DNA of 64,000 nt from a virus, in IMG/VR virus record IMGVR_UViG_3300045988_151219, positions 32,001-96,000 of that record. One strand, given 5' to 3'. The position numbers were made by a program, and so were the translations under genes. This document shows, piece after piece, positions 10,107 through 32,929 of this stretch. The first letter of the stretch is position 1, and every line of letters starts with the position of its first letter. Below the pieces are notes generated by a model that was given only the letters and a program-made list of their open reading frames with translations, was not told the origin of the DNA and did no database searches.

Positions 10107-10119
10107 AGTATATATAATC

Positions 10120-11949: not shown

Positions 11950-11964
11950 AAGATTTTTACTCCT

Positions 11965-13836: not shown

Positions 13837-13841
13837 AGTTA

Positions 13842-16572: not shown

Positions 16573-17961
16573 TTAGTTTATCTGGGTAAGAAAGCTATTT
16601 AACCTTGTATGATTTTCGTTAATTGAATTGATTGTTTCTACCTTTTGAGGCTTATTAACTATTGACTCATTAACTACTGTCGTTTGGTAATATGCTTTCG
16701 CCCCATAGTCAAAATTTGATTTCTTTTTGACGCTCTTCTTTATTTTAGGCTTTGAGATAACAGGCTTTACAGACTCTACTATCTTTTCCTCTTTTTTAGA
16801 AAGCTGCGTCTTTAAATTCTTTATTTGCTTATTTAAAAGCTTTTTGGTTTCGGTAGATTCTTCTATCTTAGAAAAATAAGTGGCTTTTAACATAGAATTT
16901 GATTCCTGTAAAAAGTCTATCTCTTTACTAAGACTATCAATAGATTCTTCTAACTTCATGTTAGAAGCTATAGCAACATCAACTTCTTTAGATTTCTCGA
17001 CAAGTGCCAGCTTACTTTTAGAGATTTCTTTATTAAAGTGACTTGCCTGGCTGTCTATAGATTCTTTTAAATCTTTTATATCTTTACGATATGAAGAAAC
17101 TTGGTTATTTAGAGTCTGGATGTTGTCTGTAAGTGTAGAGATTTTCGCTCTAAGTGTAGAAATTTCTTCTTCACTTTCAAGTAATTTAGACTCTGTTATA
17201 ATATTTTCTTCAAAAAGATTCTCGTAAGACTCGTCTAAAATCTCTTTGTCAGAAGTGCTGTTTTTGATTTTAGCGTCTATCTTACTTTTAATAGAATCAT
17301 ATATATTAGAATCCATAGATTCAAATATCGGTTTTAATGATTTAATATCCGATGAAGTCGCTTCATCAAGATATTTATTCAATGTGTCAATAAATGTAGC
17401 ATTAGACGATTCATTGACCGGAGAAAGTCTTGAAGTAGAAAAGCCAGGATTAGGTACAAAGTCAAATCCTTTAAAAACATAGTTATCTTCATCAGGATAA
17501 CTTATACCATCTCTAACGGTCATTGACCCTCTGGCTCTTGCAGAAATACCCATTTTACTACCATACTTTATCATGGTATATACCATTCTTCCTGCTGGTG
17601 TATTGAGTATGTCGGCTCTTCCCCACAAGACTTTTTTAGCTTCATCCCACCATAATTTAATTACATTATGGGATACTTTATTTAAATCAATATCAAACCG
17701 TTCTTCCGGATGTGATAATTCTCCGAATAATGTACGGTTTTCCATTAATTCAATAGTGGTTGGATAGTTACGTATCTTATTCTCTACTAAAGAAAAAGTG
17801 TAACCCCGCATATTGTTATTTATTTCATCAACTGAAATAAACGGACCCTCAACGGAACAAAGCACAGCATCGTTAGGTACGTTACTTTCAGTAGATTCAC
17901 ATATTTTTAATTGATGTACTTGTATATTGCTTAAGTATTGTAATTCTTTATCTGTAGGCAA
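16573..17961 (-). CDS. Prohead protease (T4 gp21-like) fused to a coiled-coil scaffold domain
   Basis: N-terminal 200 aa: LFGELSHPEERFDIDL...KLWWDE..KVLWGRADIL.TP.G......IKYGSKMGISARARGS aligns with T4 gp21 ALGELNHPPRANVD...DMWWKG.DVYGRARVI.....G......IRAGWIPGVSSRGLGS. C-terminal 260 aa is K/E/S-rich heptad-like coiled coil. TTG start behind GGGGGTG. Confidence 0.85.
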   Translation of the reverse strand: MPTDKELQYLSNIQVHQLKICESTESNVPNDAVLCSVEGPFISVDEINNNMRGYTFSLVENKIRNYPTTIELMENRTLFGELSHPEERFDIDLNKVSHNVIKLWWDEAKKVLWGRADILNTPAGRMVYTMIKYGSKMGISARARGSMTVRDGISYPDEDNYVFKGFDFVPNPGFSTSRLSPVNESSNATFIDTLNKYLDEATSSDIKSLKPIFESMDSNIYDSIKSKIDAKIKNSTSDKEILDESYENLFEENIITESKLLESEEEISTLRAKISTLTDNIQTLNNQVSSYRKDIKDLKESIDSQASHFNKEISKSKLALVEKSKEVDVAIASNMKLEESIDSLSKEIDFLQESNSMLKATYFSKIEESTETKKLLNKQIKNLKTQLSKKEEKIVESVKPVISKPKIKKSVKKKSNFDYGAKAYYQTTVVNESIVNKPQKVETINSINENHTRLNSFLTQIN

Positions 17962-17998: not shown

Positions 17999-20230
17999 TT
18001 AGGTTCTAATTAATCTTTGTTTATATCCCGAATCGTACTTGCGAATTTCGTTGACTGAAAAATGTTTTGTCACTACCCAAATTAATTTATTCTTATTCCG
18101 CCTAATATATGATAAAGAAGTTGATGAATCGTTTCCGAAAAATTCACCGTCAGTAAATACAATTATGCAGTCTGTCTTCTGATTTACTCTTTTCTTTACC
18201 ATCTCTACCGCTGTAGAAAAGTCCGTTCCACCCTGCGGATATTTCGCATAAGCTGCAGCAACTCTACCATACAGACCCCTTAAGGTTGTGTAGTGTTCCC
18301 AATAATAATCTTTGTCAGACGCCCAATATAAAGCTTCGACCTTCAAATTATGTTTGATTATTTTACTTATATTATCTATTTCCGAAATAACTAAACGATA
18401 TTTATTTGCAGACATAGAACCCGAATTATCAAACATTAAAACTATACGTCCTATATAAGATTCATCAGCTGATGAACCAAACGCTCCTTCAAGTCTTCTG
18501 GACGGGTCATTAGGTCTATACTCTTCTTTTACGTTTAAATAATTGGTAAGTAAAGCTCTTAATTTAACTTTCCAATTAGATAAATTCTGATTAACTTTCA
18601 GCGGCTTTTCCATAATAGGTGAAGAAGCCTTCAACGTTTTCTTAGCCTTTGCTAAAGAACTATTTGAGTCTTCATCATCTTTTACAATTCCAGCTTCTTT
18701 TAATTCTCTTAATTCATCTTGGTCTTCTTTACCTTGTTCATTATTTGTATTGTTCAAAATCTTTTCTACTACATCTTTTAAATCTTTTTGTGACATAGCC
18801 GGCATAGATGAATTAGATTTAGACTGTCTAACTAAAATGTTACGCATAGATTTAGGTATAGATGAATTTCCGCCACTTGAAGAGTCACTGCCAGAAGAAC
18901 CACTTTGAGAATCTCCAGCTTGAGAAGTTGTACCCGAACTACCGCTATCTTGCGAATCTCCTTTGTTACCTTTCATATCATTCTGGCTTAAATCTCTTCC
19001 TGTACTTGAAGAGTTTCCACCATTACTACCTTGAGATGAATTATTTCCGTTTTGACTTTGTTGCGAACTTGATGAACCGCCACTCTGTTGATTTTGCTGG
19101 GAATTTCCGCTCTGTTGACGTTGCTGTGAGTTACCACCCTGCTGATTATCTTCCGTATCTACATTGTTACCGTTAGATACTATTTGTTTTTCATTTCCAT
19201 CTTCATCAACCATGGAAATATTATCAGAAAATCTCTTGATAAAATCTAATATTTTATGAGTTACTATTACAGAATTATCTTTATAGTATTCAAGTAATGA
19301 GTTTGAAATAGAAAAATTAACTCCTAAATAGCCGTCAAAGTCAGTCACTTTAGATAAAACATTAGAAGGTAAAGATACTTTTCCATCTAACAGCTGTTTA
19401 AAAGCTTCTCTTAAAATCTTATAGAATTTGTCTTTTGTAAAATCTACTTTACCTAAAGAGAAAAACATGTCATTAGAAACGCCTGTTATCATCGGAGACT
19501 TTAACAAAACTTTTTCTAACGGCAAGTTTATACAAGCATCTTCTACTATATTACATAAAGTATGAGGATATTTTTTAAAAGATTTTTGAAATAAATGTCC
19601 TCTGTAGATGTGGCTCATCTCATGAGCCAGCAAAAGAACTATTGAATTTTTGGCTTCATTTACTATTAAATCAATAGCTCTTTTGTCAGTTAATTTTAAA
19701 TATCTTATATATTCATTGGTAGACTGATAAAGTGCCTGATAAATAATAAATTCCGGATTGTACCAAAGCTCAACGTCTCCTGATAAAGTCCTGGTAACAC
19801 ATAAAGTCGGTATCTTCCTATTTACTTTCTGCGGAATGTGATTAAAGATAATAGCATATTGAGGAAATAAAATATTTAATCTCTTTACAGCAGCATTAAA
19901 CAATTCAACGCCTAACTGCGGATTAACTTTTTTCATTTCCTCTTTTACTATATCAGCAAGCTTTTGTCTTATTTTTAATGTGTCTACATCAGCACTATAA
20001 TTATTAGATAAAGTAGCTTCTTCTTTTGAGCCTTCCGGAGAATAAGCTACTCCTATTGAAAAAGTATTGTCCGGATTTTCTGTGTTAGTATCTTTAGCAA
20101 ATATAAAGTCTATATCTAAAAAGTTCTTCTGTTTTTCAGAAACCAGTTTATTAAGCTCTTGTCCGTCTTTACTAACAAACTTTTCTTTTATATTTTGTAT
20201 ATGTCCTACTATTTCTTTAAAGTTATACAT
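17999..20230 (-). CDS. vWA-domain protein with N-terminal HExxH metallopeptidase-like domain and a ~110-aa S/G/Q/N-rich linker
   Basis: 743 aa. HExxH motif in LLLAHEMSHIYRGH. Low-complexity region at roughly nt 18850-19190. C-terminal vWA MIDAS elements VLMFDNSGSMS, GGTDFSTA and IIVFTDGE. Confidence 0.8.
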   Translation of the reverse strand: MYNFKEIVGHIQNIKEKFVSKDGQELNKLVSEKQKNFLDIDFIFAKDTNTENPDNTFSIGVAYSPEGSKEEATLSNNYSADVDTLKIRQKLADIVKEEMKKVNPQLGVELFNAAVKRLNILFPQYAIIFNHIPQKVNRKIPTLCVTRTLSGDVELWYNPEFIIYQALYQSTNEYIRYLKLTDKRAIDLIVNEAKNSIVLLLAHEMSHIYRGHLFQKSFKKYPHTLCNIVEDACINLPLEKVLLKSPMITGVSNDMFFSLGKVDFTKDKFYKILREAFKQLLDGKVSLPSNVLSKVTDFDGYLGVNFSISNSLLEYYKDNSVIVTHKILDFIKRFSDNISMVDEDGNEKQIVSNGNNVDTEDNQQGGNSQQRQQSGNSQQNQQSGGSSSSQQSQNGNNSSQGSNGGNSSSTGRDLSQNDMKGNKGDSQDSGSSGTTSQAGDSQSGSSGSDSSSGGNSSIPKSMRNILVRQSKSNSSMPAMSQKDLKDVVEKILNNTNNEQGKEDQDELRELKEAGIVKDDEDSNSSLAKAKKTLKASSPIMEKPLKVNQNLSNWKVKLRALLTNYLNVKEEYRPNDPSRRLEGAFGSSADESYIGRIVLMFDNSGSMSANKYRLVISEIDNISKIIKHNLKVEALYWASDKDYYWEHYTTLRGLYGRVAAAYAKYPQGGTDFSTAVEMVKKRVNQKTDCIIVFTDGEFFGNDSSTSLSYIRRNKNKLIWVVTKHFSVNEIRKYDSGYKQRLIRT

Positions 20231-20235
20231 AAACT

Positions 20236-20568
20236 TTATTCCTCATAAGAAAATCCGATTCCGTTATATCTCGGTCGGCCTAAAGCTTCTATTGTGAGCT
20301 TATATAAATCTTTACTTCTAATCACTACTATATCAAAATCATATATTGTGTGATTAACATTCTGGCGATATTTAATTTTAAATCCGCCTGTAAATTTAGT
20401 GCTGTTATTTACATACCGCCCATCAGTCGCAATAGCAGGAACGAAATATTTCTCATAATCATTCCTGCTCACGTCTATAGAAATGATTTTATTACTGTCT
20501 TCTACTTCTTCTAAGTCAGTACGATAATCGATTGAATTAAGAAAAGATATAAGTACCTCTTTTAACAT
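20236..20568 (-). CDS. Hypothetical protein (110 aa) between the AAA+ and vWA genes
   Basis: ORF-track entry, 1-5 nt from both neighbours. Confidence 0.6.
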   Translation of the reverse strand: MLKEVLISFLNSIDYRTDLEEVEDSNKIISIDVSRNDYEKYFVPAIATDGRYVNNSTKFTGGFKIKYRQNVNHTIYDFDIVVIRSKDLYKLTIEALGRPRYNGIGFSYEE

Positions 20569-20569
20569 C

Positions 20570-23500
20570 TTATTTTGCTCCTTTATTAATATTAGCAGCT
20601 ACTTTAGCTTTGATTTCATCAGAAACTACTACCCCTACACTGTCCATAAGCTCTACCAGTAAGTCTGCTGTATCAAAAGCTTTATTAATAAATTTTCTAA
20701 AATATGTACTGTCTTTTCCTGTATAAAGCATATTAACTTTATATTCATTTGATGGAAGACTATTTAAGAAAGCATAAACAACTTCTCTATCATATTCTGG
20801 GTCTTTATTATCAAAATGGTCAATATACTGTTTAAACAAGCTATTAACAACTGAATATCTCTTTTCAATTACAGGTATAATAGAAATTTCCTGTTCTAAG
20901 AATTTGTTTAATATGTCTATTGATACGCAATCTTCTAAATCATAATGCTCTATTTCTCGGTCAGACACATTATTATAAAACTGTCCGAATTTAGAAGAAG
21001 CATCACTTCCTACAATATAAGTAAAAGCTTCTTTACGGTCACGCATAACTTCAATATCTATCTGTCTTGCAATAACCGCTAATCTCTGGAAAGTCCTATA
21101 AAGAGAATCATCTTCTTTTATACTATCAGAAGTATGAGAAGCTACTAATTCCTGGAGCGTTTCTGCTACTGATTGAGAATCTACCTGCTCCCCACCTAAG
21201 GTAACAGAATAATCCCCTCTGGCACCAGCCCATTTATGAATGTACTTCTTGACTGTATTGTAGACATCTACAAAATCAGTATCTTTTCCCTCTCCTGAAA
21301 TTAAATCAGCTACCTGTCTTTGTGTCTTTTCATCAGGGAACAATACAACTCCTCTAAACATAGAAGTTGATTTAGAGTTCTTTATAAATGTACTTAAGTC
21401 TTCCCACGCTCTGGTAGATGAAGAAGAACATTCTAATGACCGCTTTTCAACTGTATTCATAAAAGCAATAGCATCTTCCGGAGCTAAGTCATTAAAATAT
21501 TTTTGTACTTCCGGAGCAAATTCTGAATCTTTCATATACTTCTGGAAAGATTTTAAATCAAGCTCATCAAATTCAGGTTTCTTTAATACTGAAAATCTTG
21601 CTGAAAATGCAGGGTCAAGAGGTTTAACGTCAGAATAAGCTTCCCCTACGTTACAAGAACCTACAACTTTTACTCTGTCTTTATTGAATTTTATACCTCT
21701 AAATCTGTGGTCTGAAATAACTTCTAAGATAGCACTCATAAGAGTCGTATCAGAAAGTCTATTCATTTCATCAAAATGAATAATAACTTCCTGTCCTACG
21801 TCCGCTGCTTTTCTTAGCTTATAATATAATTCTCCGTCACAAGCTTTTATAGTAGTCTTTTCAGGCAAGTTAAATTCAGACAGCTTAGGCAACTCATTTA
21901 GTTCAGACTCATTTAAATTAAGTCCGCCTAAAATATAACGGGCTACAGATACAGTAGTAGGAATACCCATCAAGTCCAGTCTATCTTGTTCAGCTAAGTT
22001 TACATCTATCAGTAAAGCCTTTCTTTTATTTGCTATTGCTTTTAACCTTGAAGATTTACCCATAGATGAAGCTGTTTCAAGCAGAATAGGTGTATTAGAA
22101 TCAATACCCTGTTCTATAAAATCAGACATAACATCATCAGAAAGTTCAGCTTCTTTATATCCTAATTTAGTCAGATAGTCATAGAAGTTTTCTCCACCTT
22201 CTCCTAAAAGACCCATAAAGATATCTTTCTTAATTACTTTATCGGGATGTTGATAAAGATAGTTTGAAGCCATTTCCCACGTGCGGAAGTTAGGATAAGA
22301 AGTTTCCCCAGCTTTGTCAGTATCCCCTGTATCATTATAAACTTTCTCTACTAAAGAAAAATCATAATACTGTGTTGGGAATTTTTCTAAGTATTCTCTT
22401 ACTACCGGATGAATGTTAGTCCTGTCTCCTTCAGACTTTTCATCTGCCCAGGCTTTCCACGGTTTAATAACATCTTCCGGCAAAATAGGAATAGGTTCAA
22501 AACGGTCATTAAAAGCAGCATCGTCTGAAATTCCTACTTGATATATTGACTGTAAATCTTCTTCTTTTCCTACGGCATAGTTAGAAGCTGCTACAATCTT
22601 AGCATACTTCATAGGGTGACCCATAAATTCCTTGTCCGACAGTATCTTTGTAAAAGCTTGTCTGATAGGTGGATAACATCTCATAAGTTCGTCCAGGAAC
22701 AGAACAGGCGGTTTTGCTCCTTCTTTAAACTTATTCAATATTTTTGTGAGTCTTTCTTTGTCATAGTCTTCTGCGGTTTCTATTTTCTCTTCTATAATAG
22801 GAATAGATTTACGGCAGAAATCTACGTATGAATCTAAGCATTCTATCATAAAAGAAGCAGGAGCTGAATTTGCCACTATCTCTGAAAGGTCCTCTAAATC
22901 TTCTGTATTATTTACTTTAGATAAACCTTGTAAGTCAAGACGTGATAAGAAAGCTAACCGAATATCTACTAAACGATAGCCATACTGGTCAGCTAATTTC
23001 TTAACCATAGCAGATTTAGCTACCCCTGACTGCCCTAAAAGCAAAGGTATTCTATTCTGCGGTTTATCATTTTGAAAATAAACATCAAGTCTACTTACAT
23101 ATGTAGGGGTACCTGATTCTACATTCCCTACACTGTTTTTAAATTCATCATCATCTACTTTGTTAAATAGGTCTTTGAGATTTGCTTCATCAATAGTCAT
23201 AAGTTTCATAGGTTTCCTTTGGATAGATTCATTAATATAATTATTAAAAGGGTGGTCATCAGTTAAAGAGTCTTTGTGATTTAAGCAGAAGTCTAAATAG
23301 TAAGAGTCCGAAACTCCCCCTATTTCCTGTCCGTCTATATCAGAATAGACTACAGTCGTTCCGCTTTCTGCCGTATCTACATATGAGTTTCTTAAAACAT
23401 CGTTATAGTCTACTTCGACTATCATTGCTTTAATTTTCTCCATATGCTTTTTAATCGAATATACGACAAAATCAGGTTCTGTCATTACATAAAAATTAAA

Positions 23501-23683
23501 TGGACGAACCTGATATATAGTTGGTGATTTTATTGAGCTTACTACTGATGAAGTAAACTCATCTGATAGATTGTTAAATTGTGAGGCTTTAGCTGTCAGT
23601 AAAAGATTATTTGTATCAAAGTCTACTACTTTGTTTGATATAACGGGACATTTTTCTAAGAAAGGTAAATAATCTTGTACCAC
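20570..23683 (-). CDS. Large ATPase with two MoxR/dynein-related (AAA_5-like) AAA+ modules
   Basis: 1037 aa. Module 1: Walker A LLLGQSGVAKSAM, ..RLDLQGL, Walker B VLFLDELMR. Module 2: Walker A LETASSMGKSS, ..RLDLMGIP, Walker B IIHFDEMNR. Confidence 0.8.
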   Translation of the reverse strand: MVQDYLPFLEKCPVISNKVVDFDTNNLLLTAKASQFNNLSDEFTSSVVSSIKSPTIYQVRPFNFYVMTEPDFVVYSIKKHMEKIKAMIVEVDYNDVLRNSYVDTAESGTTVVYSDIDGQEIGGVSDSYYLDFCLNHKDSLTDDHPFNNYINESIQRKPMKLMTIDEANLKDLFNKVDDDEFKNSVGNVESGTPTYVSRLDVYFQNDKPQNRIPLLLGQSGVAKSAMVKKLADQYGYRLVDIRLAFLSRLDLQGLSKVNNTEDLEDLSEIVANSAPASFMIECLDSYVDFCRKSIPIIEEKIETAEDYDKERLTKILNKFKEGAKPPVLFLDELMRCYPPIRQAFTKILSDKEFMGHPMKYAKIVAASNYAVGKEEDLQSIYQVGISDDAAFNDRFEPIPILPEDVIKPWKAWADEKSEGDRTNIHPVVREYLEKFPTQYYDFSLVEKVYNDTGDTDKAGETSYPNFRTWEMASNYLYQHPDKVIKKDIFMGLLGEGGENFYDYLTKLGYKEAELSDDVMSDFIEQGIDSNTPILLETASSMGKSSRLKAIANKRKALLIDVNLAEQDRLDLMGIPTTVSVARYILGGLNLNESELNELPKLSEFNLPEKTTIKACDGELYYKLRKAADVGQEVIIHFDEMNRLSDTTLMSAILEVISDHRFRGIKFNKDRVKVVGSCNVGEAYSDVKPLDPAFSARFSVLKKPEFDELDLKSFQKYMKDSEFAPEVQKYFNDLAPEDAIAFMNTVEKRSLECSSSSTRAWEDLSTFIKNSKSTSMFRGVVLFPDEKTQRQVADLISGEGKDTDFVDVYNTVKKYIHKWAGARGDYSVTLGGEQVDSQSVAETLQELVASHTSDSIKEDDSLYRTFQRLAVIARQIDIEVMRDRKEAFTYIVGSDASSKFGQFYNNVSDREIEHYDLEDCVSIDILNKFLEQEISIIPVIEKRYSVVNSLFKQYIDHFDNKDPEYDREVVYAFLNSLPSNEYKVNMLYTGKDSTYFRKFINKAFDTADLLVELMDSVGVVVSDEIKAKVAANINKGAK

Positions 23684-23695
23684 GATAATTTCTCC

Positions 23696-24250
23696 TTATT
23701 GCTGTAATAAGTATTTGAATAAATATTTAAAAGCTATTGAAACTTCTGTATCAAACTGCTTACTTAATGATATATTTCTGTTGCTTTCCCAGTCTATATC
23801 CATAAGTTCAAAGATAGGTTTCAGCCGCATATATACTGAAGGTGAATATGAAATCTGATACTGTCCTGAATCTGTTTTATATATACATTTCAACGCAAAT
23901 ACCAGTACTAAAACCTGAAACATTGTTACGACTGTCCGAATAAAAACATAGTCTTTATTCTGGTCATCTAAATAGTCCTGGTCTCCCACTTGCTGGAGTT
24001 CTTTAACCAGTTGCATAAACCTTTGATTCATGAAAATACGGCTCATAGCAGACCCGCCGGCATCTTGATACAGCTTTCTGATGTCTTCGATATCATCGAT
24101 ATCAGGATTATCCATAAGCTCTTTTATTTCATCATTATATTTCCTCAAAAGCGGAAGTACAATAACATCACTCTTCGGTCCAAAAGGTTTTTTAGACAAA
24201 AGCTTTCTAAAATATTTCTGGTAGTAAGTAGAAATCAGCTGTAACTTCAT
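23696..24250 (-). CDS. Hypothetical protein (184 aa)
   Basis: ORF-track entry. No motif recognised. Confidence 0.6.
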   Translation of the reverse strand: MKLQLISTYYQKYFRKLLSKKPFGPKSDVIVLPLLRKYNDEIKELMDNPDIDDIEDIRKLYQDAGGSAMSRIFMNQRFMQLVKELQQVGDQDYLDDQNKDYVFIRTVVTMFQVLVLVFALKCIYKTDSGQYQISYSPSVYMRLKPIFELMDIDWESNRNISLSKQFDTEVSIAFKYLFKYLLQQ

Positions 24251-24278
24251 TGTTTAACCTCTCTTTGAATTAATTTTG

Positions 24279-25283
24279 TCAAATAATTGAAAGTGTAAAA
24301 TATCTCCTTAACAGAATCTGCTTTATAAGTGTTACTAAATTTATAATACGATATTTTTCACTTAGTAAATATTTCTTTCTCCCAAAAGGTTTTACTTCTA
24401 AATAAAAATCCTTTGGCAATAACTTACGTAAACTATCAGGAAGTATTGTTGTTAAATCTAAAAATCCCCTTGTTATTGAGTAAAAAGCTGATTTAGTGGC
24501 AATTCTTCCACCATCTAAAAACGCTATTGCTACTTCTTCTAAATTACTCTCCTTTAAAATTTTGTATGATTTAATATTATCTTTAGCACTATTATTTACT
24601 AAAATATAAAGCTGGTCTTGTTTTGTCGCCTTATATGTTAAGTAAGAAAATTTTCGTACGGGTATTATAGATTTTATAACATAATATATGTCTACCTTCT
24701 CTCCCTTTTTAGGCTTCACATATCTATATAGAATAGTAAGCACAGATTTATATAAATTTACATTCTTAACTAACAAAATTAACTTATCTACAACATTTAA
24801 AATATTGTAATCAACTCCGCTATTTAAAAGCTTCACCATCAACTGAAAAGCGTCTAAGTTTTCTTCTTTTAAGTTAAATAAGTTAAAATCCAAACTAAGT
24901 TTAAAAGCTATCAGTATATCCCTTATATTATTTTTATCGTCTTTAAAGTTTAAATAGTCTTTTAGCTGTTGGTCAGTTCCTACATAAACAGCTACCCCTA
25001 AACTTGGGTCAGTTAAATAAAAATTTCCTGATTTAATTCCATAAAATAACCCAAATAAAACTACATAAGGTTCGTCAACTTTTAACAGTTTAATATTTAA
25101 TTTAACATATTTACTAAAATTGTCAAAAGATACTATATGTAATCCAGTAAATTCTGGAAATATCTTCTGTATTTTAAGTAGATAGTCAGTTTTTTTACTT
25201 ATATCCTTATAAAATTTAATTACAGCCTCTTGACCGTTAATGCAAGAAATATTTAATTTGAAAGTTTTTTCTTGTACATTCAT
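24279..25283 (-). CDS. Paralog-array member 6 (divergent)
   Basis: LFGLFYGIKSGNFYLTDPSLGVAVYV and DAFQLMVKLLNSG correspond to the IFSMYYSPDTNIFYLNDP..AVPI and DSFSLLVQMLTKG blocks of the other members. The C-terminal tail has diverged. Confidence 0.65.
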   Translation of the reverse strand: MNVQEKTFKLNISCINGQEAVIKFYKDISKKTDYLLKIQKIFPEFTGLHIVSFDNFSKYVKLNIKLLKVDEPYVVLFGLFYGIKSGNFYLTDPSLGVAVYVGTDQQLKDYLNFKDDKNNIRDILIAFKLSLDFNLFNLKEENLDAFQLMVKLLNSGVDYNILNVVDKLILLVKNVNLYKSVLTILYRYVKPKKGEKVDIYYVIKSIIPVRKFSYLTYKATKQDQLYILVNNSAKDNIKSYKILKESNLEEVAIAFLDGGRIATKSAFYSITRGFLDLTTILPDSLRKLLPKDFYLEVKPFGRKKYLLSEKYRIINLVTLIKQILLRRYFTLSII

Positions 25284-25319
25284 TGGCAGTACCCTTCTAC
25301 AAACAGTTTATATTTTATA

Positions 25320-26404
25320 TTATACTAATTCTTTCATTAGTCTTTTTGAGATTTTGTTAAATATTACAGAAAATCGTCTACTATTGTGAGTATTATGAAT
25401 AAACTTATTTGCTTGAAACTCATGACCAAAATTAATTTTATTAGGGTCTGTAGGAGATTTTATAGAAGTCGCTTTATTAAAAGTTTCTTCCCCCATTAAA
25501 TCTTTTGCCGGACTTATTAAATCTTGAAAAGTAACTTCTGTCGTTTTTTTCTAAAGAAGGACTTTGTTTAATGAAATATTCTGTTAATTCCACCTTATTT
25601 ACATAATTAAGAATTTTATTATAGTGTTCTGAATCAGAATCATATTGGCTTAACGGAACATCAGAAGAAGCTCGGTATAAATAATATTTACAAGCTGATG
25701 AAGATTCTATAGGAACTATAGTAGAATTTTTATAAAATACTCTTTCTATATCTGAATAAAGGTTTGTTTTTTCCGCATTCAATTTTAAAATCCGTTGAAA
25801 GAAAAACTGAACTTCTATAACTTCTTTAGCTAAATTAAACAGCTTATATACAAAACCATCAACACTACTTGGGTCTGATACACTCTCTACAGAATGACTA
25901 CATAACAAGTCTATTAATAACTCAAAATTATCTACTTCTTTTTCTATTTCTTCATCTTTATTTAAAAAATATTCTATATTTCCTGTTAGCTTATAAGCCA
26001 TAACTTTATTAATAAAATCTTGACTTAAATCTACTCCTAAATAAAGAGATAAATCAGCTAAAGTATTAAACGGAACTGCAATACCAGTCTCCGGTTCAGT
26101 TAAATAAAATATTTCTGTTTCCGGAACATAATACATATTAAACAAATAAATATAATTTACCGTTTTGTTTTTTCATCCCAGTAAAGACAAAATAACTTTT
26201 CATTTTCATCTACTTCAAAGGGAAAGTCGGTAACATTTTCCGCTTTTCTTGTAGTAGATTTAAACAATAATATAAAAAGCATATATATTTACAGTCATTA
26301 TCTCTATTTGAGTTCAGTAATTTATCTATGAAAGTTAATTGTCTTACAAAACTAATTATTCTACGGGATACTTCACCAGTATCCAAAAAATAAAGTTTCT
26401 TCAT
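25320..26404 (-). pseudogene. Paralog-array member 5, disrupted by three frameshifts
   Basis: Track ORFs 26210-26419 and 25477-26145 are fragments. Own three-frame reading gives MKKLYFLDTGEVS... then (shift at plus A5 26274-26278) ..FILLFKSTTRKAENVTDFPFEVDENEKLFCLYWDEK, then (shift at plus T6 26168-26173) ..KTVNYIYLFNMYYVPETEIFY...SPSLEK, then (shift at plus T7 25544-25550) ..TTEVTFQDLISPAKDL...NSRRFSVIFNKISKRLMKELV*. Confidence 0.7.
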
Positions 26405-26405
26405 G

Positions 26406-27440
26406 TTAGGACACCTCATTTAAAACAGATTTAGATATTTTATTAAAAATTACAGAAAATCTTCTATCCAGTAATCCTCTTTTATATAAAAAATTAGTAT
26501 TCATATCAGCATAATCCCCAGCATATTTTTCTTGCCCTGGTTCTATTTCAACCTTATTAAATGAATTTAAAGCTCTTTTACTTATATGAAGCTTTAACGG
26601 CTCTAATAAATCTGCCGCTGATTTTTCCGCCGATTCTATTGACGATGAAGTTTTTATGAAATACTCTTTTAGCTCTTCTTTATTTAATGCTCTATATAAT
26701 GAATTAGACACGTCATTTGTAGTAATATTAATATCCACTACATTATCTAAAGACAATTTCTTTAAATCATCTAACTTATTTGCAAAAATAAACAAATAAG
26801 GAACAAAAGAAGCAGATATACCGTATAATTTTATATTAGTTTGCCAGTCTTCCAGTAAAGAAAAAAATCTTCTTGAATTATTAACTAATAAAGTACAAAC
26901 AAAAACAACATCCAATAAAGTTTTCTTGACTTGATTGATGTCTACCTGGCTCTCTTGTAATGAATTTTGCAAACATGAAATTAAAAGCTGGAAATTATCT
27001 ACGTCTTCATCATCTCCGGTTTCAAAAAAATTTGCTATGTTTCCGGATATTTTATAAGCTAAAGCTTTTTTAAAGAAGTCATTTCTTATCTTAAACTGCA
27101 ACTTTTTTTCAAGAGTCGTTAGAGACAATATAGGAATAGCTCCAACATCTGATTTATTAGCATAAAAAATTTCTGTGTCCGGTGAATAGTACATACCCCA
27201 AAGACATATAAAGTTACGTGGATTTACACAAGTAACAGCTTCTCCTCGTGTTAGGACCCTTATACTATTTTTAGTTAAGTTATGTACTATAAAAAATAAA
27301 GATTTAGTTTTAAAGAAAGCTTCATATCTTTTTATAACCGAATTAACAGCCTTTATAGAATGAAACACATTATCTAAATTCTGTTCATCTGATAGAAAAG
27401 TATCTAAATGAAATTCAAAAAGAGTTTTTTCTACTCCCAT
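26406..27440 (-). CDS. Paralog-array member 4
   Basis: 344 aa with YYSPDTEIFYANKS core. Tail is RRFSVIFNKISKSVLNEVS*. Confidence 0.75.
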   Translation of the reverse strand: MGVEKTLFEFHLDTFLSDEQNLDNVFHSIKAVNSVIKRYEAFFKTKSLFFIVHNLTKNSIRVLTRGEAVTCVNPRNFICLWGMYYSPDTEIFYANKSDVGAIPILSLTTLEKKLQFKIRNDFFKKALAYKISGNIANFFETGDDEDVDNFQLLISCLQNSLQESQVDINQVKKTLLDVVFVCTLLVNNSRRFFSLLEDWQTNIKLYGISASFVPYLFIFANKLDDLKKLSLDNVVDINITTNDVSNSLYRALNKEELKEYFIKTSSSIESAEKSAADLLEPLKLHISKRALNSFNKVEIEPGQEKYAGDYADMNTNFLYKRGLLDRRFSVIFNKISKSVLNEVS

Positions 27441-28442
27441 TTAACTTACCTCTTTAAGTAGTATCTTAGATATTTTATTGAAAATTACTGAAAACTTCTT
27501 ACAATATAATATACTCATTTCTCCATAATACGTTGTATAAAGCTCTTTACTTTGTTTAGCATCCGCTTCTATTTTACTATCGGCTGTATCAAATAAAGAA
27601 AGAGTTCTCTTAGAAACTTTATCTTGGATAGGCTTTAAAAAATCCTTTATTGATTTATCAGCTACATCAAGAGACGGTGAAGTTTTTATAAAATACTCTG
27701 AAAGCTCTTCTTTATTTAAAGCTTTATATAAAGGATTAGTTAAATTAAATTCACTTGTAGTAAATTCATGTTCTACAAAATATGACGGATAATCAAGAGA
27801 AGCTTTTCTAAAATCATCTATATTATCAATACCTAATAGAGTATTTTTCTGAAACGTACATTCTATAGTTTTAAATTCTTCCTCTTCAACATGTTGTGCA
27901 AAATCTTCCATAAAAGCACCAAACGTAAAAAGAAATCTTGTCATTGCATCTGTAAATTTAAGTAACCTATCTTTTATTTCTTTTTTGTCTGTGATAACCT
28001 CAACGTTCATATTCTGTAAAAGATTAACCATTAAAGAGAATGTATCCGATGTTGTATCTTGAATATCAAAAGATAATAAATCATCTATATTACCTGTTAC
28101 TTTATAAAGTAAAACTCTCTCGGTAAAATTTTGATTAATAGGATATTGCAAATATTTACTTAAAGCTTTTAAAGAAACAACAGGTATCGCTATCTTCTCT
28201 GATTTATTAGCATAAAAAATTTCTGTGTCTGGTGAATAATAAGCTCCAAATATCTTTAAAAAATTTTGAGGTCTAATTTCTTCTTCCCAGCTTAAAATTA
28301 CATAATCATCATGGAAATTTTCATATTTAAAAAGATATTCCATATTTAAATCTTTTTTTAGTCTTCTTAGTGGAGAATTTACTATTCTTACTCCACCCTT
28401 TATATCAGAAGTAGGATAATTTACTCGATAAGACCGTTTCAT
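27441..28442 (-). CDS. Paralog-array member 3
   Basis: 333 aa with YYSPDTEIFYANKS core. Tail is KKFSVIFNKISKILLKEVS*. Confidence 0.75.
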   Translation of the reverse strand: MKRSYRVNYPTSDIKGGVRIVNSPLRRLKKDLNMEYLFKYENFHDDYVILSWEEEIRPQNFLKIFGAYYSPDTEIFYANKSEKIAIPVVSLKALSKYLQYPINQNFTERVLLYKVTGNIDDLLSFDIQDTTSDTFSLMVNLLQNMNVEVITDKKEIKDRLLKFTDAMTRFLFTFGAFMEDFAQHVEEEEFKTIECTFQKNTLLGIDNIDDFRKASLDYPSYFVEHEFTTSEFNLTNPLYKALNKEELSEYFIKTSPSLDVADKSIKDFLKPIQDKVSKRTLSLFDTADSKIEADAKQSKELYTTYYGEMSILYCKKFSVIFNKISKILLKEVS

Positions 28443-28443
28443 T

Positions 28444-29460
28444 TTAACTTACCTCTTTAAGCAGTATCTTAGATATTTTGTTGAAAATGACTGAAAACTT
28501 TCGGTCAGTTAATCCTCTGCTATATTTTGCTCGTACTGCATTATAACCTATGTCTCTCTTTTCAACTGCTTTATCGAAAGCCGAAATTGTTCTTCCGCCT
28601 GTCACATCTTTTACAAACTCTAAATGTTCTTTCATTGATTTTTCAGCCACATCAAGTGAAGAAGAAGATAATAAGAAAAAGTCAAATAGTTCTTCTCTAT
28701 TAAAAACTTTATTTTCTACTATGTCTTCTTTATCATAAGTAGAATCTGTACATGAAGAATAAAGATAAGATTTACTATTAAATCTTTTAACAGGCTCCGT
28801 GCAAGATGGACCTAACCAATACTCATAATTAAATAAAAAAGTAAACCTACGTTTTATATTATCTACAAGGACTACAAATTTTTTTAAAATTCTGGTCGCT
28901 TCATTAATATCTACATTAAATATTTCAGAATGATTCTGAAGGAGATTAATTAAAAGCTCGAAATTATCTGTATCCTTAACATCTTTATTTTCATATAAAA
29001 AATAATCCAATTTCCCTGATATTTTAAAGGAAACGGCTCTTTTTACAAAATCATCTGAAATTTTAAAATTTAAAATCCTTTCAAAAGTTTTTAAATTAAT
29101 AAAGGGAATAGCTCCCCCACCTTTAGGGTGATTGAAATAAAATATTTCTGTTTCAGGTGAGTAATATAAGCTAAAAAGTTTTATTGCATTAGTCGGCTTA
29201 ACTATTTCATCCCATTCAAATTTAACAGCTCTAACATTCATATCTTTTCTTTGTATACCTGGTTGAGTTGCCAACGCACTTTCCGGAACATCTTCTAAAT
29301 TAACGATTCTATAAGTAAATAAACAATCACTCTCTGCTATTTGATTTTTTAACTCGTTCCCCCATTTATAAAAAAAGTCACTTAAAAAAGAACTTAAAGT
29401 ATGCCACCAGTTTTCTACATTCACATAATCTGGAAAAAATCCGTATATTTCTCTATGCAT
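28444..29460 (-). CDS. Paralog-array member 2
   Basis: 338 aa with YYSPETEIFYFNHP core. Tail is RKFSVIFNKISKILLKEVS*. Confidence 0.75.
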   Translation of the reverse strand: MHREIYGFFPDYVNVENWWHTLSSFLSDFFYKWGNELKNQIAESDCLFTYRIVNLEDVPESALATQPGIQRKDMNVRAVKFEWDEIVKPTNAIKLFSLYYSPETEIFYFNHPKGGGAIPFINLKTFERILNFKISDDFVKRAVSFKISGKLDYFLYENKDVKDTDNFELLINLLQNHSEIFNVDINEATRILKKFVVLVDNIKRRFTFLFNYEYWLGPSCTEPVKRFNSKSYLYSSCTDSTYDKEDIVENKVFNREELFDFFLLSSSSLDVAEKSMKEHLEFVKDVTGGRTISAFDKAVEKRDIGYNAVRAKYSRGLTDRKFSVIFNKISKILLKEVS

Positions 29461-29464
29461 TTAT

Positions 29465-30571
29465 CTAAGCCCCTCCATTCAAACTTACCTCTTTTAATAG
29501 AGATTTACTTATTTTATTGAAAATTACTGAAAATTTACGATTAAGTAATTCATTCCGTCTATCAAGCTGTCCTAAAGGTTTATCTATAAAAGCATCTATT
29601 TTATCTAAATTAGATTGGTCAGCTGCCTTATTAAAGAAAGAAGCAGCCCTGCTACTTACTCTACTTTTTAACGGTGTAACTAAATCTTTAAAAGCTTTTT
29701 CCGCACTTTCAACAGAATCAGATTTATCTAAATAGTAGTTAGATATTTCTTCCCTATTTACAGCTTTTTGCAAATTTAACAGTTCTTTTTTATCTTTAAA
29801 AGCATATTCCAGTCTATAAATTAAAGTGGAATACGAATAAAGAGTTTTACTTACAGCAGAAAAATTATTACTGTCTACCATCCCTTCTTGTGAAGCTGCA
29901 AAAGAAGGAGCAATTTCTTTATATAAAGAAGTGTTAAATTCATACATATCCAAAGTAGACATGTAAATATGATAGAAATAAACCTGTAAAGCTGATACTA
30001 AATTTACCATCTTATAAAGAAGTTTACTTCTACTTTTTGTATCTAAAGCACTGTTATAACTATCAACACCTTTAGTCAACATTTGCACTAAAAGCGAAAA
30101 AGAATCCGCATCTTGAATTTCAGACTCTTTAAATAAAGTCTCTAAATCTCCGGTAATTTTATATGATAAAGCTCTGTTTTCAAAATCAGTTTCTAAAGGA
30201 AGCTCTAAATACTCCGCTAAAGTTTTTAACTTCATAATCGGCACAGCATAATCATATTTAGGGTCGTTTAAATAAAAAATATTTGTGTCCGGAGAATAGT
30301 ACATACTAAAAATGTAGATACTGTCTTTCGGCTTGACAGTCTCTTCCCATTCCAGTTTTAAAAAACTTAATTCTTCATCAATAGTATCATATGGAAAATC
30401 AGGGTCTTGTTCCGCTTGTTTAAAAGTTAAGAATTTTATGTTAAATAAGAACTCTCCTAAATAAAGGTTCATAGTATTTAAAATGCTTTTAAACAAGTCT
30501 TCAAATTTAGACTTCTTATAAAAAATATTCGATTCTCCAGTACCTAACGATAAATATAAAGTTCTTTTCAT
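29465..30571 (-). CDS. Paralog-array member 1
   Basis: 368 aa with YYSPDTNIFYLNDP core. Tail is RKFSVIFNKISKSLLKEVSLNGGA*. Confidence 0.75.
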   Translation of the reverse strand: MKRTLYLSLGTGESNIFYKKSKFEDLFKSILNTMNLYLGEFLFNIKFLTFKQAEQDPDFPYDTIDEELSFLKLEWEETVKPKDSIYIFSMYYSPDTNIFYLNDPKYDYAVPIMKLKTLAEYLELPLETDFENRALSYKITGDLETLFKESEIQDADSFSLLVQMLTKGVDSYNSALDTKSRSKLLYKMVNLVSALQVYFYHIYMSTLDMYEFNTSLYKEIAPSFAASQEGMVDSNNFSAVSKTLYSYSTLIYRLEYAFKDKKELLNLQKAVNREEISNYYLDKSDSVESAEKAFKDLVTPLKSRVSSRAASFFNKAADQSNLDKIDAFIDKPLGQLDRRNELLNRKFSVIFNKISKSLLKEVSLNGGA

Positions 30572-30588
30572 CTTAAGTTCCTTTCATC

Positions 30589-31011
30589 TTAAGTTCCTTT
30601 TACAAATACTGAAACGTCTTTCTTTGAGATTAAAAATGATTGGTCTTCTTCTACTTCAAGACTGTAAATAAAATCATCATAAAAATAATTTGACTTCTTT
30701 ATCAAAACTTTCTGATATATTATACTTTTCTTTCCGTGAGGACTTAATCCAAAAAATTGTTTGGGAAGCTCTTTTAAAGCTTCTATACTATTATTATACG
30801 ATGAAATAAAAAATAGCTGGTTTTCAGTAGCGTAAATTACTTCTTTCCCTATTATCAATTTACCCACTTTATCGTATGAGATAGTCTTCCCGATAACCTC
30901 TCTAACTCTATTTCTATGCGTGTAAACATAGTCTCCTATATTTACTAAATAGATAGGCAGTCTCCCTCTTGATGTTTTAACTAAAGTAGAAGCTGAAAAA
31001 CAGTCTCTCAT
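30589..31011 (-). CDS. Free-standing Hint (intein-like) domain protein, degenerate
   Basis: 140 aa. MRD|CFSASTLVKTSRGRLPIYLVNIGDYVYTH matches intein block A. The block-B position reads TENQ (no His). C-terminus is ..IYSLEVEEDQSFLIS..VSVFVKGT* without a terminal HN. Start overlaps the upstream stop (ATGA). Confidence 0.65.
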   Translation of the reverse strand: MRDCFSASTLVKTSRGRLPIYLVNIGDYVYTHRNRVREVIGKTISYDKVGKLIIGKEVIYATENQLFFISSYNNSIEALKELPKQFFGLSPHGKKSIIYQKVLIKKSNYFYDDFIYSLEVEEDQSFLISKKDVSVFVKGT

Positions 31012-31301
31012 TTAAAATATTCCCCGAATAATTTTTTATGTATATTAAGAACTTCTTCCTGTGAAATCTTTCCCTGTATAAAATCATTTAATGTATTAGC
31101 CTGTATCTTTACATCTAAAATTTCATACATAGATACTGATTGATAAGAAAGCTCTATTAAAGAATGTGTTAAGAATGATGAAAGATACTTGGCTAAAGTT
31201 AAGTCGTTAGGCTGCTCTTTGCCATTAAGAACTTTTCTAAGTCCTATATAGAAAGCTTTAGTCCTCATTGATTTAAAAAATTCCTGCTTAACGTTTACCA
31301 T
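31008..31301 (-). CDS. Hypothetical protein (97 aa)
   Basis: Coupled to portal (1-nt overlap) and to the Hint gene (4-nt overlap). Confidence 0.6.
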   Translation of the reverse strand: MVNVKQEFFKSMRTKAFYIGLRKVLNGKEQPNDLTLAKYLSSFLTHSLIELSYQSVSMYEILDVKIQANTLNDFIQGKISQEEVLNIHKKLFGEYFK

Positions 31302-32929
31302 TACATTTCATCTCCCATCTCTTCTTCAGGAACTCCCTCTTCAAAATCGTCTGATAAATCCTTCTGAATAATAGAAGGTGTTTTTTCTTCTTTAGGCATT
31401 ATATTATCCCATAACTCTTTGAGGTTAAGCATCTTAGCTAAAATATATTCATACAAAGCGTCTTTGTCTATCTTCTTAAAGAACTCTTCATCTTCGGAGA
31501 TAATAGATTTTAAAGTTTGTGCCATAGTCAACGTGTCATTTAATGTAGTTGACCTGTCATTTTCCTCTGCTGAATAAAGTCTCGGAAGTACAATTGTAAA
31601 CTTATTGCAGTCAGCTTCTCGCCCTTGTGTATATAAATAATAATCACACAAAGCTTTAATGCCTACAGCTAAACATGCCTGGCAATGTCTAACCATTCTA
31701 CTATATCTAACGTCTATCTTCAAAAGGCTCTGATTGCCTATTCCGCCTGAAACATCTTCTGCATCTCCTAAATAAGCTTTCGGTATCTTTAAAGCTCCGA
31801 AAAGTTTTGTTCTATAATAATCTAAATCAAGAAGTGCTTTAATATCCATGTCTCCGCCAACAGTGTCTACAGTAACATCACCTTTACCGTTTCGTGTAGG
31901 AACATATATAGACCCACCTAACGGTAACGGCTGGTTGCGACTGGAATACTTCTTTCCTGGAATATCAACAGTTTCTGTTTTAGTAATCGCTTTCTGAAAT
32001 TCCGCTAAAGCAGATTTTACTTTCTTTCTGTCAAAAGCCCCTACTTCTATTTTAAAGATACGATAAAAAGCAGATTTATTAAATCTTGCTACTAATAAAA
32101 TCAGCTCTAAAAGCTCTAAAGTCTCAAAAGCTTCTCGTGCCTGATTTATAAAAGAAGTACCAAATTTAACTTTAAATTCTTTGCTTATTTCAGTAGTTCC
32201 TTTATAGTACCTTAAATTGATTTTATCTCTATGATTTCCTCTATCATTTATGATATGGATATAATCTCTTGTACCGTAAATGACTTTATTCTTATCTTTG
32301 TCTTCTGCTACAAAGCCTACGTTATCTCCATATTCCTGAATATCCTGTACAGCAAGAGGGTCTGTTATTATTTCATATAAATGTCCTCTCTTGACCACCA
32401 GCTTTTCGTCTTGCTCGTCTTTAGGCTTTTCTCTTTCAGCTATGATGTCAGATTCATAAGTCTTTAAAAAGACTTCTCCATAAGCTACAAGATTATAAGC
32501 AATAGGATATAAGTTCTGGTCTATCTTTAAAATGTCATAAAGAAAATGATGTACAGTGTCTATTATATCTTCTTTTTCTTTTTCCGTTCCTGATATATTA
32601 TAAAGATTTCTAATAGACTTGTATTCCTCTAAATTAGGCTCTGCCCAACAAACATGCATACGGTCAAAGTCCATCTGCGTTGCATCTTCTGTTATCATTT
32701 CAATAGCAGAACCTACTACAGAATCATTCATCATATTCTGTAAGTCAGTTATTATATCCTGTCTTGTGTTTGATAACTGTTTTACAGACGAAATAAAACT
32801 TAAAAGATTCTGTACAGATGAACCCTCTATTTCAGATAAAAAAGTTTCTTCTACCTGTAAACCTGAACCTGATTTATTAACAGGTATTAAAGTTTTAAGA
32901 GACTCGTTAATACTCTTGATTATGTCCAC
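31301..32929 (-). CDS. Portal protein (by position and size)
   Basis: 542 aa, immediately downstream of TerL. Size is close to T4 gp20. N-terminus MDIIKSINES resembles the SI..LNE motif. Confidence 0.6.
   Translation of the reverse strand: MDIIKSINESLKTLIPVNKSGSGLQVEETFLSEIEGSSVQNLLSFISSVKQLSNTRQDIITDLQNMMNDSVVGSAIEMITEDATQMDFDRMHVCWAEPNLEEYKSIRNLYNISGTEKEKEDIIDTVHHFLYDILKIDQNLYPIAYNLVAYGEVFLKTYESDIIAEREKPKDEQDEKLVVKRGHLYEIITDPLAVQDIQEYGDNVGFVAEDKDKNKVIYGTRDYIHIINDRGNHRDKINLRYYKGTTEISKEFKVKFGTSFINQAREAFETLELLELILLVARFNKSAFYRIFKIEVGAFDRKKVKSALAEFQKAITKTETVDIPGKKYSSRNQPLPLGGSIYVPTRNGKGDVTVDTVGGDMDIKALLDLDYYRTKLFGALKIPKAYLGDAEDVSGGIGNQSLLKIDVRYSRMVRHCQACLAVGIKALCDYYLYTQGREADCNKFTIVLPRLYSAEENDRSTTLNDTLTMAQTLKSIISEDEEFFKKIDKDALYEYILAKMLNLKELWDNIMPKEEKTPSIIQKDLSDDFEEGVPEEEMGDEM

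Follow-up and report, generated by a model that had tools for sequence, protein, structure and literature searches.

The locus described here raises the question of why twelve genes, a large AAA+ ATPase and a metallopeptidase-like protein among them, lie between the portal gene and the prohead protease gene of a phage. It belongs to a 64,000-nucleotide (nt) stretch of viral DNA (IMG/VR record IMGVR_UViG_3300045988_151219, positions 32,001-96,000), which is called the window below and whose own positions are used as coordinates throughout. The map of open reading frames (ORFs) showed that the portal gene (31301-32929) and the gene of a protease-scaffold protein (16573-17961) are separated by 12 genes, all on the minus strand and spaced from a 14-nt overlap up to a 37-nt gap, which reproduces the co-oriented, tightly packed block reported by an earlier reading of the letters alone (the sequence-only reading). 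We found that the block is a coherent unit linked to the head operon and under purifying selection, a conclusion based on the synteny of a four-gene core (a 184-amino-acid (aa) ORF, the ATPase, a 110-aa ORF and a gene encoding an HExxH motif and a vWA domain), on arrays of paralogs beside this core in at least three lineages, and on the selection estimates. The block is inherited vertically in the head-morphogenesis operon of a clade of uncultured myoviruses with low guanine plus cytosine (GC) content and T4-type heads. As to its role, we tentatively prefer, at somewhat less than an even chance, a chaperone-protease of prohead assembly or maturation, ancestral in the head operon, with the array proteins as its clients. 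The genes concerned, in the order of their transcription, are the following:

32933-37150, minus strand: large terminase with inteins, 1405 aa
31301-32929, minus strand: portal (flank), 542 aa; Portal_T4 match on orthologs
31008-31301, minus strand: 97-aa ORF, starting at the portal stop codon; small post-portal family
30589-31011, minus strand: Hint-like ORF, 140 aa; catalytically degenerate
29465-30571, minus strand: array paralog 1, 368 aa; C-terminal motif RKFSVIFNKISKSLLKEVS
28444-29460, minus strand: array paralog 2, 338 aa; from paralog alignment and BLASTP
27441-28442, minus strand: array paralog 3, 333 aa; from paralog alignment and BLASTP
26406-27440, minus strand: array paralog 4, 344 aa; from paralog alignment and BLASTP
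25320-26419, minus strand: array paralog 5, broken over three frames (ORFs of 69 and 222 aa, then a C-terminal fragment)
24279-25283, minus strand: array paralog 6, 334 aa; the most divergent copy
23696-24250, minus strand: 184-aa ORF, directly upstream of the ATPase
20570-23683, minus strand: tandem AAA+ ATPase, 1037 aa, of the MoxR/dynein/midasin (AAA_5) type
20236-20568, minus strand: 110-aa ORF, between the ATPase and vWA genes
17999-20230, minus strand: HExxH/vWA protein, 743 aa; zincin-like domain, linker and vWA domain
16573-17961, minus strand: S77 prohead protease with a coiled-coil, scaffold-like tail (flank), 462 aa
15083-16558, minus strand: gp23-like major capsid protein (flank), 491 aa

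To place the core in related phages, 28 homologs of the ATPase were collected from metagenomes, one being a 99%-identical strain variant of the same phage and the rest 23-50% identical, and the gene neighbourhoods of nine of them were examined. Seven contigs (L005, L006, L007, L009, L011, L015 and L017) share one order, namely an ORF of 138-200 aa, the ATPase, an ORF of 100-133 aa and the HExxH/vWA gene, directly followed by the S77 protease and then the gp23 capsid gene, and the portal gene lies upstream of the unit wherever the contig extends far enough. Identity of these contigs to the window is 29-50% for the ATPase and about 30-80% for the capsid protein. In L016 the unit comes after the capsid and gp13-like genes, still within the structural cluster. 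The comparison of synteny that the sequence-only reading had proposed as a check therefore places the core beside the protease and capsid genes in seven divergent contigs, and elsewhere in L016. The rank order of ATPase identities parallels that of the capsid protein and the portal: L005 has identities of 80% for the capsid protein, 74% for the portal and 50% for the ATPase, and L006 and L007 have about 40% for the capsid protein and 33% for the ATPase. Since the ATPase identities track those of the head genes, vertical co-inheritance is indicated. The GC content of the core genes (0.32-0.34) is also that of the window (average 0.331), while the paralogs are AT-richer (GC 0.26-0.29). The description of the whole block as an insertion, as first proposed, is thus wrong for the core, which is ancestral in the clade and compositionally native; only the array is AT-richer and variable in copy number.

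Selection was estimated by comparing the window with a sister strain (L013), the synonymous divergence being 0.1-0.5 for most genes. The ratio of nonsynonymous to synonymous divergence (dN/dS) was 0.016 for the 184-aa ORF, 0.042 for the ATPase, 0.12 for the 110-aa ORF and 0.11 for the N-terminal part of the vWA protein, with 0.009 for the 97-aa ORF and 0.010 for the portal. The paralogs were the least constrained genes of the block (0.07-0.37; 0.07 for paralog 1, 0.23 for paralog 4 and the block maximum of 0.37 for paralog 2), and all values were well below 1. The genes of the block are real and constrained. These results bear directly on the view that the block has no coherent function and consists of morons accumulated by chance at a permissive junction, a view to which one may count the other genes found in this slot in relatives and the fact that most products have no recognisable domain. 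Against it stand a gene order kept in at least eight divergent genomes, purifying selection, invariant catalytic motifs and arrays found repeatedly beside the core, and we regard it as extremely improbable, being effectively refuted by synteny and selection.

The largest product of the block is the ATPase, which the sequence-only reading had called a double AAA+ protein. It matched AAA_5 (PF07728) with 30.9 bits against a cut-off of 22 bits, though HMMER split the match into sub-threshold stretches, PF00004 with 30.2 against 21.2 bits, and phrog_1297 with an E-value of 3e-48, in two stretches. Among 18 aligned homologs the Walker residues G217, K223, S224, D331 and E332 of the first module and G542, K543 and E639 of the second were invariant, as were arginines in both modules. 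The AlphaFold2 (AF2) model, with a mean predicted local distance difference test score (pLDDT) of 79.6, shows two AAA+ modules between a beta-rich domain at the N-terminus and a helical domain at the C-terminus. Searched against PDB with Foldseek, the model gave dynein AAA2-4 at the top (E = 2e-11) and Rea1/midasin lower (E = 3e-8), while the type II AAA+ proteins p97 and ClpA ranked after these with poorer coverage. The double AAA+ architecture was thus borne out by Walker A and B motifs that are invariant in both modules and by a model that matches dynein and Rea1 modules. Searches of PDB by sequence, made with the ATPase, the Hint-like ORF and the vWA protein, yielded no significant match. 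Among viral models (BFVD), the best match was a 1174-aa protein without a name (E = 2e-32), and behind it came ATPases with one module ("gp24-like" or MoxR) from RaK2, PBS1, phage G, phiRSL1 and HHTV-2. The classical MoxR layout has one AAA+ module in about 300-400 aa, while this protein has two modules and extra domains in 1037 aa. Its vWA/MIDAS (metal ion-dependent adhesion site) partner gene lies 338 nt downstream with one small ORF between, and likewise in all relatives. Three of its homologs (P0004, P0013 and P0027; the L007 locus is at 10001-14560) carry inteins of about 430 aa in the second AAA+ module, inserted at a point near residue 657 of the window protein; inteins tend to occupy conserved positions in important genes.

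Among cultured phages, a homologous ATPase with two modules is found only in the Rhizobium phages RHph_TM30 and Y65 (Kleczkowskaviridae), whose protein of 1174 aa, the length of the best viral model, is 27% identical over 535 residues (E = 1e-32). In TM30 the gene after the ATPase is again a small ORF, and genes for an HExxH protein and a vWA/MIDAS protein come next. The TM30 cluster differs in that the zincin and vWA domains are encoded by separate genes, that no paralog array is seen, and that about 75 kb separate it from the capsid gene, its neighbours being tRNA and accessory genes.

The partner of the ATPase, the 743-aa protein, has a zincin-like domain with HExxH at its N-terminus and a vWA domain at its C-terminus, joined by a linker of low complexity that is about 130 aa long and rich in S, G, Q and N. 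It matched VWA_2 with 29.9 bits against a cut-off of 27 bits (residues 596-696) and phrog_1314, the N4 gp25-like family, with E = 2e-21 over residues 122-723, that is, over both domains. The motif HEMSH (residue 203) and a downstream NIVEDACIN were conserved in 12 of 12 homologs bearing the domain, including gp33 of phage Presley, the downstream D..(F/Y/C)IN pattern was conserved in every homolog examined, and the MIDAS motif DNSGS (residue 601), followed in the window protein by GGTDF and FTDGE, was conserved in all homologs. In L009 (607 and 511 aa) and TM30 (471 and 507 aa) the zincin and vWA halves are separate genes that keep the motifs. The assignment of a vWA/HExxH protein made from the window alone was accordingly confirmed, with the HExxH and DxSxS motifs kept in every homolog examined. 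The Pfam family DUF2201 scored 20.1 bits against 26.4 on the window protein, and DUF2201_N did not match it and matched the orthologs weakly (at best 22.0 against 23.2 bits, in L007), while gp33 of the N4-like phage Presley ("N4 gp25-like") matched DUF2201_N and DUF2201 cleanly. By its sequence, the window protein appears to be a long and divergent member of the DUF2201_N plus DUF2201 superfamily.

The pair has a known counterpart in the N4 gp24/gp25 pair (phrog_1297/phrog_1314; DUF2201_N plus DUF2201), which consists of an AAA_5 ATPase, a small ORF and an HExxH plus MIDAS vWA protein, and the same order of ATPase, small ORF (174 aa) and gp25-like gene is found in Presley. The N4-type ATPase has a single module in about 390 aa, while the window ATPase comprises two modules and additional domains at both ends in about 1,000 aa. 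The window's vWA protein has roughly double the length of its N4-type counterpart and contains the low-complexity stretch of about 130 aa. The window unit keeps a constant place between the portal and protease genes and is linked to an amplified array of orphan genes, while the N4-type pair usually lies among early or replication genes. For N4, gp24 has been listed as an AAA ATPase and gp25 as a vWFA protein, both with function unknown (PMC2784036). Iyer et al. (2021) described the pairing of MoxR with a metallopeptidase-vWA protein in jumbo phages of group 2.2 and, citing the proteins p618 and p892 from Acidianus two-tailed virus (ATV), proposed for it a role in virion assembly with peptidolytic processing (PMC7824862). 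In the light of the N4 listing and that proposal, neither the pair nor the assembly hypothesis is new, and the term "undescribed", which the sequence-only reading applied to the whole module, does not hold for the ATPase/vWA pair. It does hold for what is new here, namely the tandem dynein/midasin-like ATPase, the fixed position in the head operon and the linked orphan arrays.

The ATV proteins give an experimental precedent for a role in virion morphogenesis. ATV p618 and p892 interact, and p892 stimulates the ATPase (PMC4124505); p618 binds virion and tail proteins, and the pair has been implicated in the development of the virion tails (PMC4124505). Both cases concern a virus-encoded MoxR/vWA pair, the ATV pair being tied to morphogenesis by experiment. 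The ATV pair differs in that the virus is archaeal, the ATPase has a single module, there is no zincin domain, the process is the extracellular development of tails, and p618 is itself a virion component.

Upstream of the core lies the array. The 344-aa copy matched the other paralogs with BLASTP E-values from 1e-52 to 1e-5, and at the DNA level the array consists of repeats with a period of about 1.0-1.09 kb. The count of six paralogs given by the sequence-only reading stands as regards their homology, which is far beyond chance; it does not stand as regards six intact genes, because copy 5 is split over three frames. Paralog 5 is intact in sister strains (366 aa in L013, 361 aa in P0035), and in the window its C-terminal motif is found in the ORF segment 25323-25550. 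It contains at least two frame changes near homopolymer runs, so that it may be a pseudogene or may reflect an assembly or sequencing error. Paralog 6, with a degenerate C-terminal motif, is 20% identical to paralog 1, and in comparison to the sister strain it has 80% amino-acid identity and a dN/dS of 0.28.

An exhaustive HMMER search of 1.84 billion representative proteins, made with the profile of the paralogs, gave 7 matches, all from the own lineage or from L005, and the family is thus without annotated relatives. Array copies are nevertheless found just upstream of the core in several lineages: six in the window, eight in L017 (299-387 aa), four in L007 (390-465 aa, interleaved with 190-204 aa paralogs of the pre-ATPase ORF) and one in L005. 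In profile-profile comparison (hhalign) the window family matched the L017 family with a probability of 94.6% (E = 7e-8, 131 columns) and the L007 family more weakly (E = 2e-3), and the hidden Markov model of the window family matched one L007 copy with E = 9e-6 in a database of about 70 sequences. The region common to the array families is a domain of about 130 aa with the pattern LFG.YY...FY...L..YL...AL.YK. Each array also keeps a conserved C-terminal helix, which in the window reads FSVIFNKISKxLLKEVS and whose coding segment is the best-conserved DNA of the window repeat (up to 95% identity; the 3' 58 nt of paralogs 2 and 3 are 95% identical). The helix is cationic and amphipathic in the window and L005, with a hydrophobic moment of about 0.6 and a net charge of +3 to +5.

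Two readings of the array other than that of clients need to be weighed at this point. The first is the cargo role assigned to the family by the sequence-only reading, in which the array proteins would be packaged in the capsid and ejected with the DNA, like T4 IPI-III and Alt or the paralogs of the phiKZ inner body; the C-terminal helix would be a targeting signal, and the ATPase/vWA pair would load or organise the proteins. The location of the array genes between portal and protease, a conserved C-terminal peptide on otherwise divergent bodies, and a copy number of 1-8 with raised dN/dS, as expected of host-facing proteins, are consistent with it, and the motif end LxE|VS fits a site of a Glu-specific T4-type protease, the Glu of the capsid site being conserved. 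T4 internal proteins, however, have an N-terminal targeting sequence and are encoded elsewhere, while the N-termini of the paralogs cannot be aligned and show no such signal; the paralogs are not enriched in [LI]xE, with 0.6-1.7 per 100 aa where the scaffold has 3.5; the sole conserved LxE, 2 residues from the C-terminus, is not kept in the L005 or L017 families; and an AAA+ motor is used by no known prohead-loading system. A sharing of the C-terminal motif with the scaffold or other head proteins was considered and rejected, the motif being found nowhere else in the window. With variable N-termini and protease-site motifs that are not enriched, the proposal of cargo has no direct support: a cargo role for the array proteins is possible but unsupported, and we consider this account of the block unlikely. 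The second reading, in which the zincin would cleave the array proteins and free the C-terminal amphipathic helix as an active peptide, draws on the contrast between variable bodies and conserved C-terminal 20 residues or so, on the cationic, amphipathic character of the helix in the window and L005, and on the precedent of zincin plus FxSxx-COOH precursor systems, which are linked to MoxR-vWA ternary systems (Kaur et al. 2020). It is improbable, as the L017 helices are near neutral and three of four weakly amphipathic, there is no conserved cleavage motif upstream of the helix, the precursors, at 300-390 aa, are not small, and the best-conserved part is the domain of about 130 aa, which argues for the function of a folded protein.

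The core also includes two small ORFs, for which position and size are the main evidence. The position before the ATPase is filled in L005, L006, L007, L009, L011 and L017 (167-200 aa) and in L015 (138 aa), and the ATPase-vWA gap holds an ORF of 100-133 aa in L005, L006, L007, L009, L010, L011, L015 and L017. The 184-aa ORF has clear sequence similarity to its L005 counterpart only (26%, E = 8e-11), and homology of the 110-aa ORF was likewise found with L005 only (E = 1e-8). The centre of the 184-aa protein is a conserved hydrophobic segment, where the Kyte-Doolittle 19-residue score peaks at 2.31 (residues 102-120), and the protein's positional equivalents reach 1.1-2.4 (the 138-aa L015 ORF was not scored). 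This segment may be a transmembrane helix, judging from its hydrophobicity, and if so the module would be positioned at the membrane. In T4, the membrane is where prohead assembly begins.

From these parts the working of a prohead chaperone-protease may be sketched. By analogy with midasin and MoxR-vWA systems, a client would be bound by the vWA/MIDAS domain via an acidic ligand, ATP-driven force from the AAA+ ring would insert, extract or remodel this client in prohead assembly or maturation, and the fused zincin would trim or destroy it. The two small partner proteins would join the machine, the 184-aa one possibly as a membrane anchor, and the tandem orphan proteins encoded upstream would be its most likely clients or adaptors; we infer that the products interact physically. 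Midasin/Rea1 and dynein resemble the ATPase in carrying several AAA modules per chain and are the best PDB matches of its model, and midasin also has a low-complexity linker, acidic in its case, followed by a MIDAS domain that grips the client. Midasin strips assembly factors from a large pre-ribosomal particle. The differences are that the window ATPase has two modules rather than six, that sequence identity is about 10%, and that its MIDAS domain is on a separate polypeptide which also bears the zincin domain. A more specific and rather unlikely version of the scheme is a "mini-midasin", in which the AAA+ motor, a MIDAS/zincin protein acting in trans and a possible membrane anchor would mechanically deliver a rapidly evolving client family, amplified in tandem, to the prohead under assembly or strip it from there. 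If this were true, it would represent a new class of ATP-driven head-assembly factor, distinct from GroES/gp31-type chaperones, scaffolds and terminase.

Head genes lie on both sides of the block. The protease matched Peptidase_S77 in Pfam (E = 7e-13, residues 36-181) and phrog_207 in PHROGs (E = 6e-40), its tail was matched by Pfam coiled-coil families at residues 222-362, and its [LI]xE density was 3.5 per 100 aa in comparison to about 1-2 in neighbouring proteins. The capsid protein is 33-35% identical to the major capsid proteins of Bacillus phage SP-15, Listeria phage LIS04 and Bacillus phage HSE3 (tblastn), Pfam Gp23 matched its orthologs, and the Glu of its predicted maturation site PIYE|AADP is conserved, which fits a T4-like Glu-specific protease. 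The order of portal, S77 protease, scaffold-like region and gp23-like capsid gene is that of the T4 head cluster (20, 67, 68, 21, 22, 23), and small ORFs follow the portal like 67 and 68, while T4 lacks ATPase and vWA genes at this place. The 97-aa ORF, the small gene that follows the portal here, has orthologs in L005 (56%) and L007 (36% identity) and weaker matches in L015 and in HSE3 (gp058), and no significant Pfam or PHROG match was obtained for it.

Several observations weigh against a role in head assembly. The pair lies among middle or replication genes in N4-like phages, near rIIA or thymidylate kinase in Vequintavirinae and far from the capsid gene in TM30, and in L010, the most distant relative (24% identity), the trio of ATPase, small ORF and vWA gene is near the DNA polymerase and off the head genes. 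With the pair off the head genes in these four cases, the head linkage is a feature of this clade in particular, and the pair may originally have served a function unrelated to capsids. The slot between portal and protease also takes unrelated genes: in LIS04 (L001, 14933-18068) and HSE3 (L002, 14977-18096) it holds two small ORFs and the alpha and beta genes of ribonucleotide reductase, and in L009 (5600-6697) a TnpB/IS605 OrfB gene, which indicates that the junction tolerates foreign genes. The module is missing in relatives with similar heads (SP-15-like phages, HSE3 and the Streptococcus phage GXN1), so that it is dispensable for building a T4-type head; in GXN1 portal and protease are nearly adjacent, and the ATPase was not found in LIS04, HSE3 or GXN1. 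Profile comparison did not show cross-lineage homology of the 184-aa ORF (E = 0.0095 against the profile of the other lineages, a weak match) or of the 110-aa ORF (E = 0.054 with hhalign), their position and size being conserved. Finally, the AF2 model of a paralog, built from an alignment of six sequences, had a pLDDT of 40.6 and was unusable for a fold search.

Part of this evidence would be expected if the machine and its diversifying array acted on the host, in takeover, anti-defence or superinfection exclusion, and owed its place in the late operon solely to a portal-protease junction that tolerates insertions such as ribonucleotide reductase or TnpB. N4-like and rV5-like phages encode the pair with their early or middle genes, and the array is AT-rich, variable in copy number and has the highest dN/dS of the block. 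Bacterial MoxR-vWA ternary systems, moreover, are conflict systems (Kaur et al. 2020). What speaks against a host-directed role is that the core strictly adjoins the protease across deep divergence in seven lineages, that all dN/dS values are well below 1, and that the PADLOC and NCBIfam scans gave only P-loop-level matches (BrxF). The small ORFs and paralogs had no match in Pfam, NCBIfam or PADLOC, scans in which no dedicated VMAP-C profile was used, and bpMoxR appeared as a faint precomputed match on two homologs only. Taken together, a counter-host machine is a doubtful explanation, and the assembly or maturation chaperone-protease stays the reading that we prefer.

The relatives show further variation around the module. 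Another conserved family of 159-254 aa adjoins it in L007 (2351-2881), L009 (4801-5565) and L016 (11756-12235); BLASTP found no counterpart among the block proteins, the rest of the window not having been searched for it. Pfam scans of ten other ORFs of relatives, in variable slots or beside the core, gave no matches.

The MoxR-like ATPase and metallopeptidase-vWA pair is among the most widespread phage pairs of unknown function, occurring in N4-like, rV5-like and many jumbo phages, and tblastn with Presley gp33 found the gp33 family in 793 cultured phage genomes. The fixed portal-protease position in this clade, together with the candidate clients, is the strongest support from genomic context that we found for the published guess of a role in virion assembly. 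The guess becomes testable through named partners, namely the array proteins with their C-terminal helix, the two small ORFs and the S77 protease/scaffold. If it is true, an AAA+ remodeller takes part in the capsid assembly of some tailed phages; if the module is host-directed instead, it would be a new late-expressed counter-host system with a diversifying array of effectors.

As regards the identity of the phage, the nearest cultured phages by capsid protein are Bacillus phage SP-15, Listeria phage LIS04 (Thornevirus) and Bacillus phage HSE3, with about 34% identity. No match was found among GenBank phages by megablast with the whole block or by tblastn with the vWA protein, and scans of IMG/VR with the ATPase and portal confirmed no close relatives. 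The same phage species is present in many metagenome assemblies, as contigs of 138-147 kb.

The remaining gene of the block is the Hint-like ORF, which the sequence-only reading had taken for a free-standing Hint domain with autoprocessing activity. The domain assignment proved weak, as Pfam Hint_2 matched residues 4-40 only with 22.2 bits, under its cut-off of 28.4 (E = 1.9e-4), and the match to a bacterial intein-like (BIL) domain in PDB had E = 0.71. Block B reads TENQ in place of TxxH in both the window protein and its L005 ortholog (32% identity), so that the block-B His is missing; the C-terminus VFVKGT has no His-Asn; and Cys4 of the window protein is replaced by Val/Gly in the L005 ortholog, which thus has no N-terminal Cys. 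Active autoprocessing was rejected because these catalytic residues are lacking. The protein is conserved all the same, its sequence being unchanged in the sister strain L013. It has a short, weak similarity to the start of the third terminase intein (residues 1206-1225 of the large terminase, TerL; E = 0.03).

Late co-expression of the block with the head genes is probable from its place in their operon, and expression signals add nothing on timing. Sigma-70-like promoter matches were not above their frequency in shuffled sequence, the T4 late-promoter motif TATAAATA was below chance frequency, and terminator-like sites were slightly more numerous than in shuffled sequence (12 in comparison to 6.7 ± 2.5), none of them between block genes; with promoter and terminator matches near or below chance, the timing of expression is not inferable from them. 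No tRNA genes were found in the 64-kb window, and no Rfam families at the gathering threshold. Every ORF of the window judged to be coding is on the minus strand, and the window (1-64000) is a region of structural genes.

Upstream of the portal, the terminase gene (32933-37150) has a counterpart of identical length in L013, which shows an Intein_splicing match and a faint LAGLIDADG_3 match, and the terminase ortholog of L005 (1393 aa, 61% identity) is likewise intein-bearing. Further upstream, beyond a 199-aa ORF, a 2685-aa product is called in L013 (1-2686), where the window has a repeat-rich ORF of 1116 aa (37902-41252) and then several shorter ORFs up to about 45900, a difference that may lie between the strains or may come from frame breaks.

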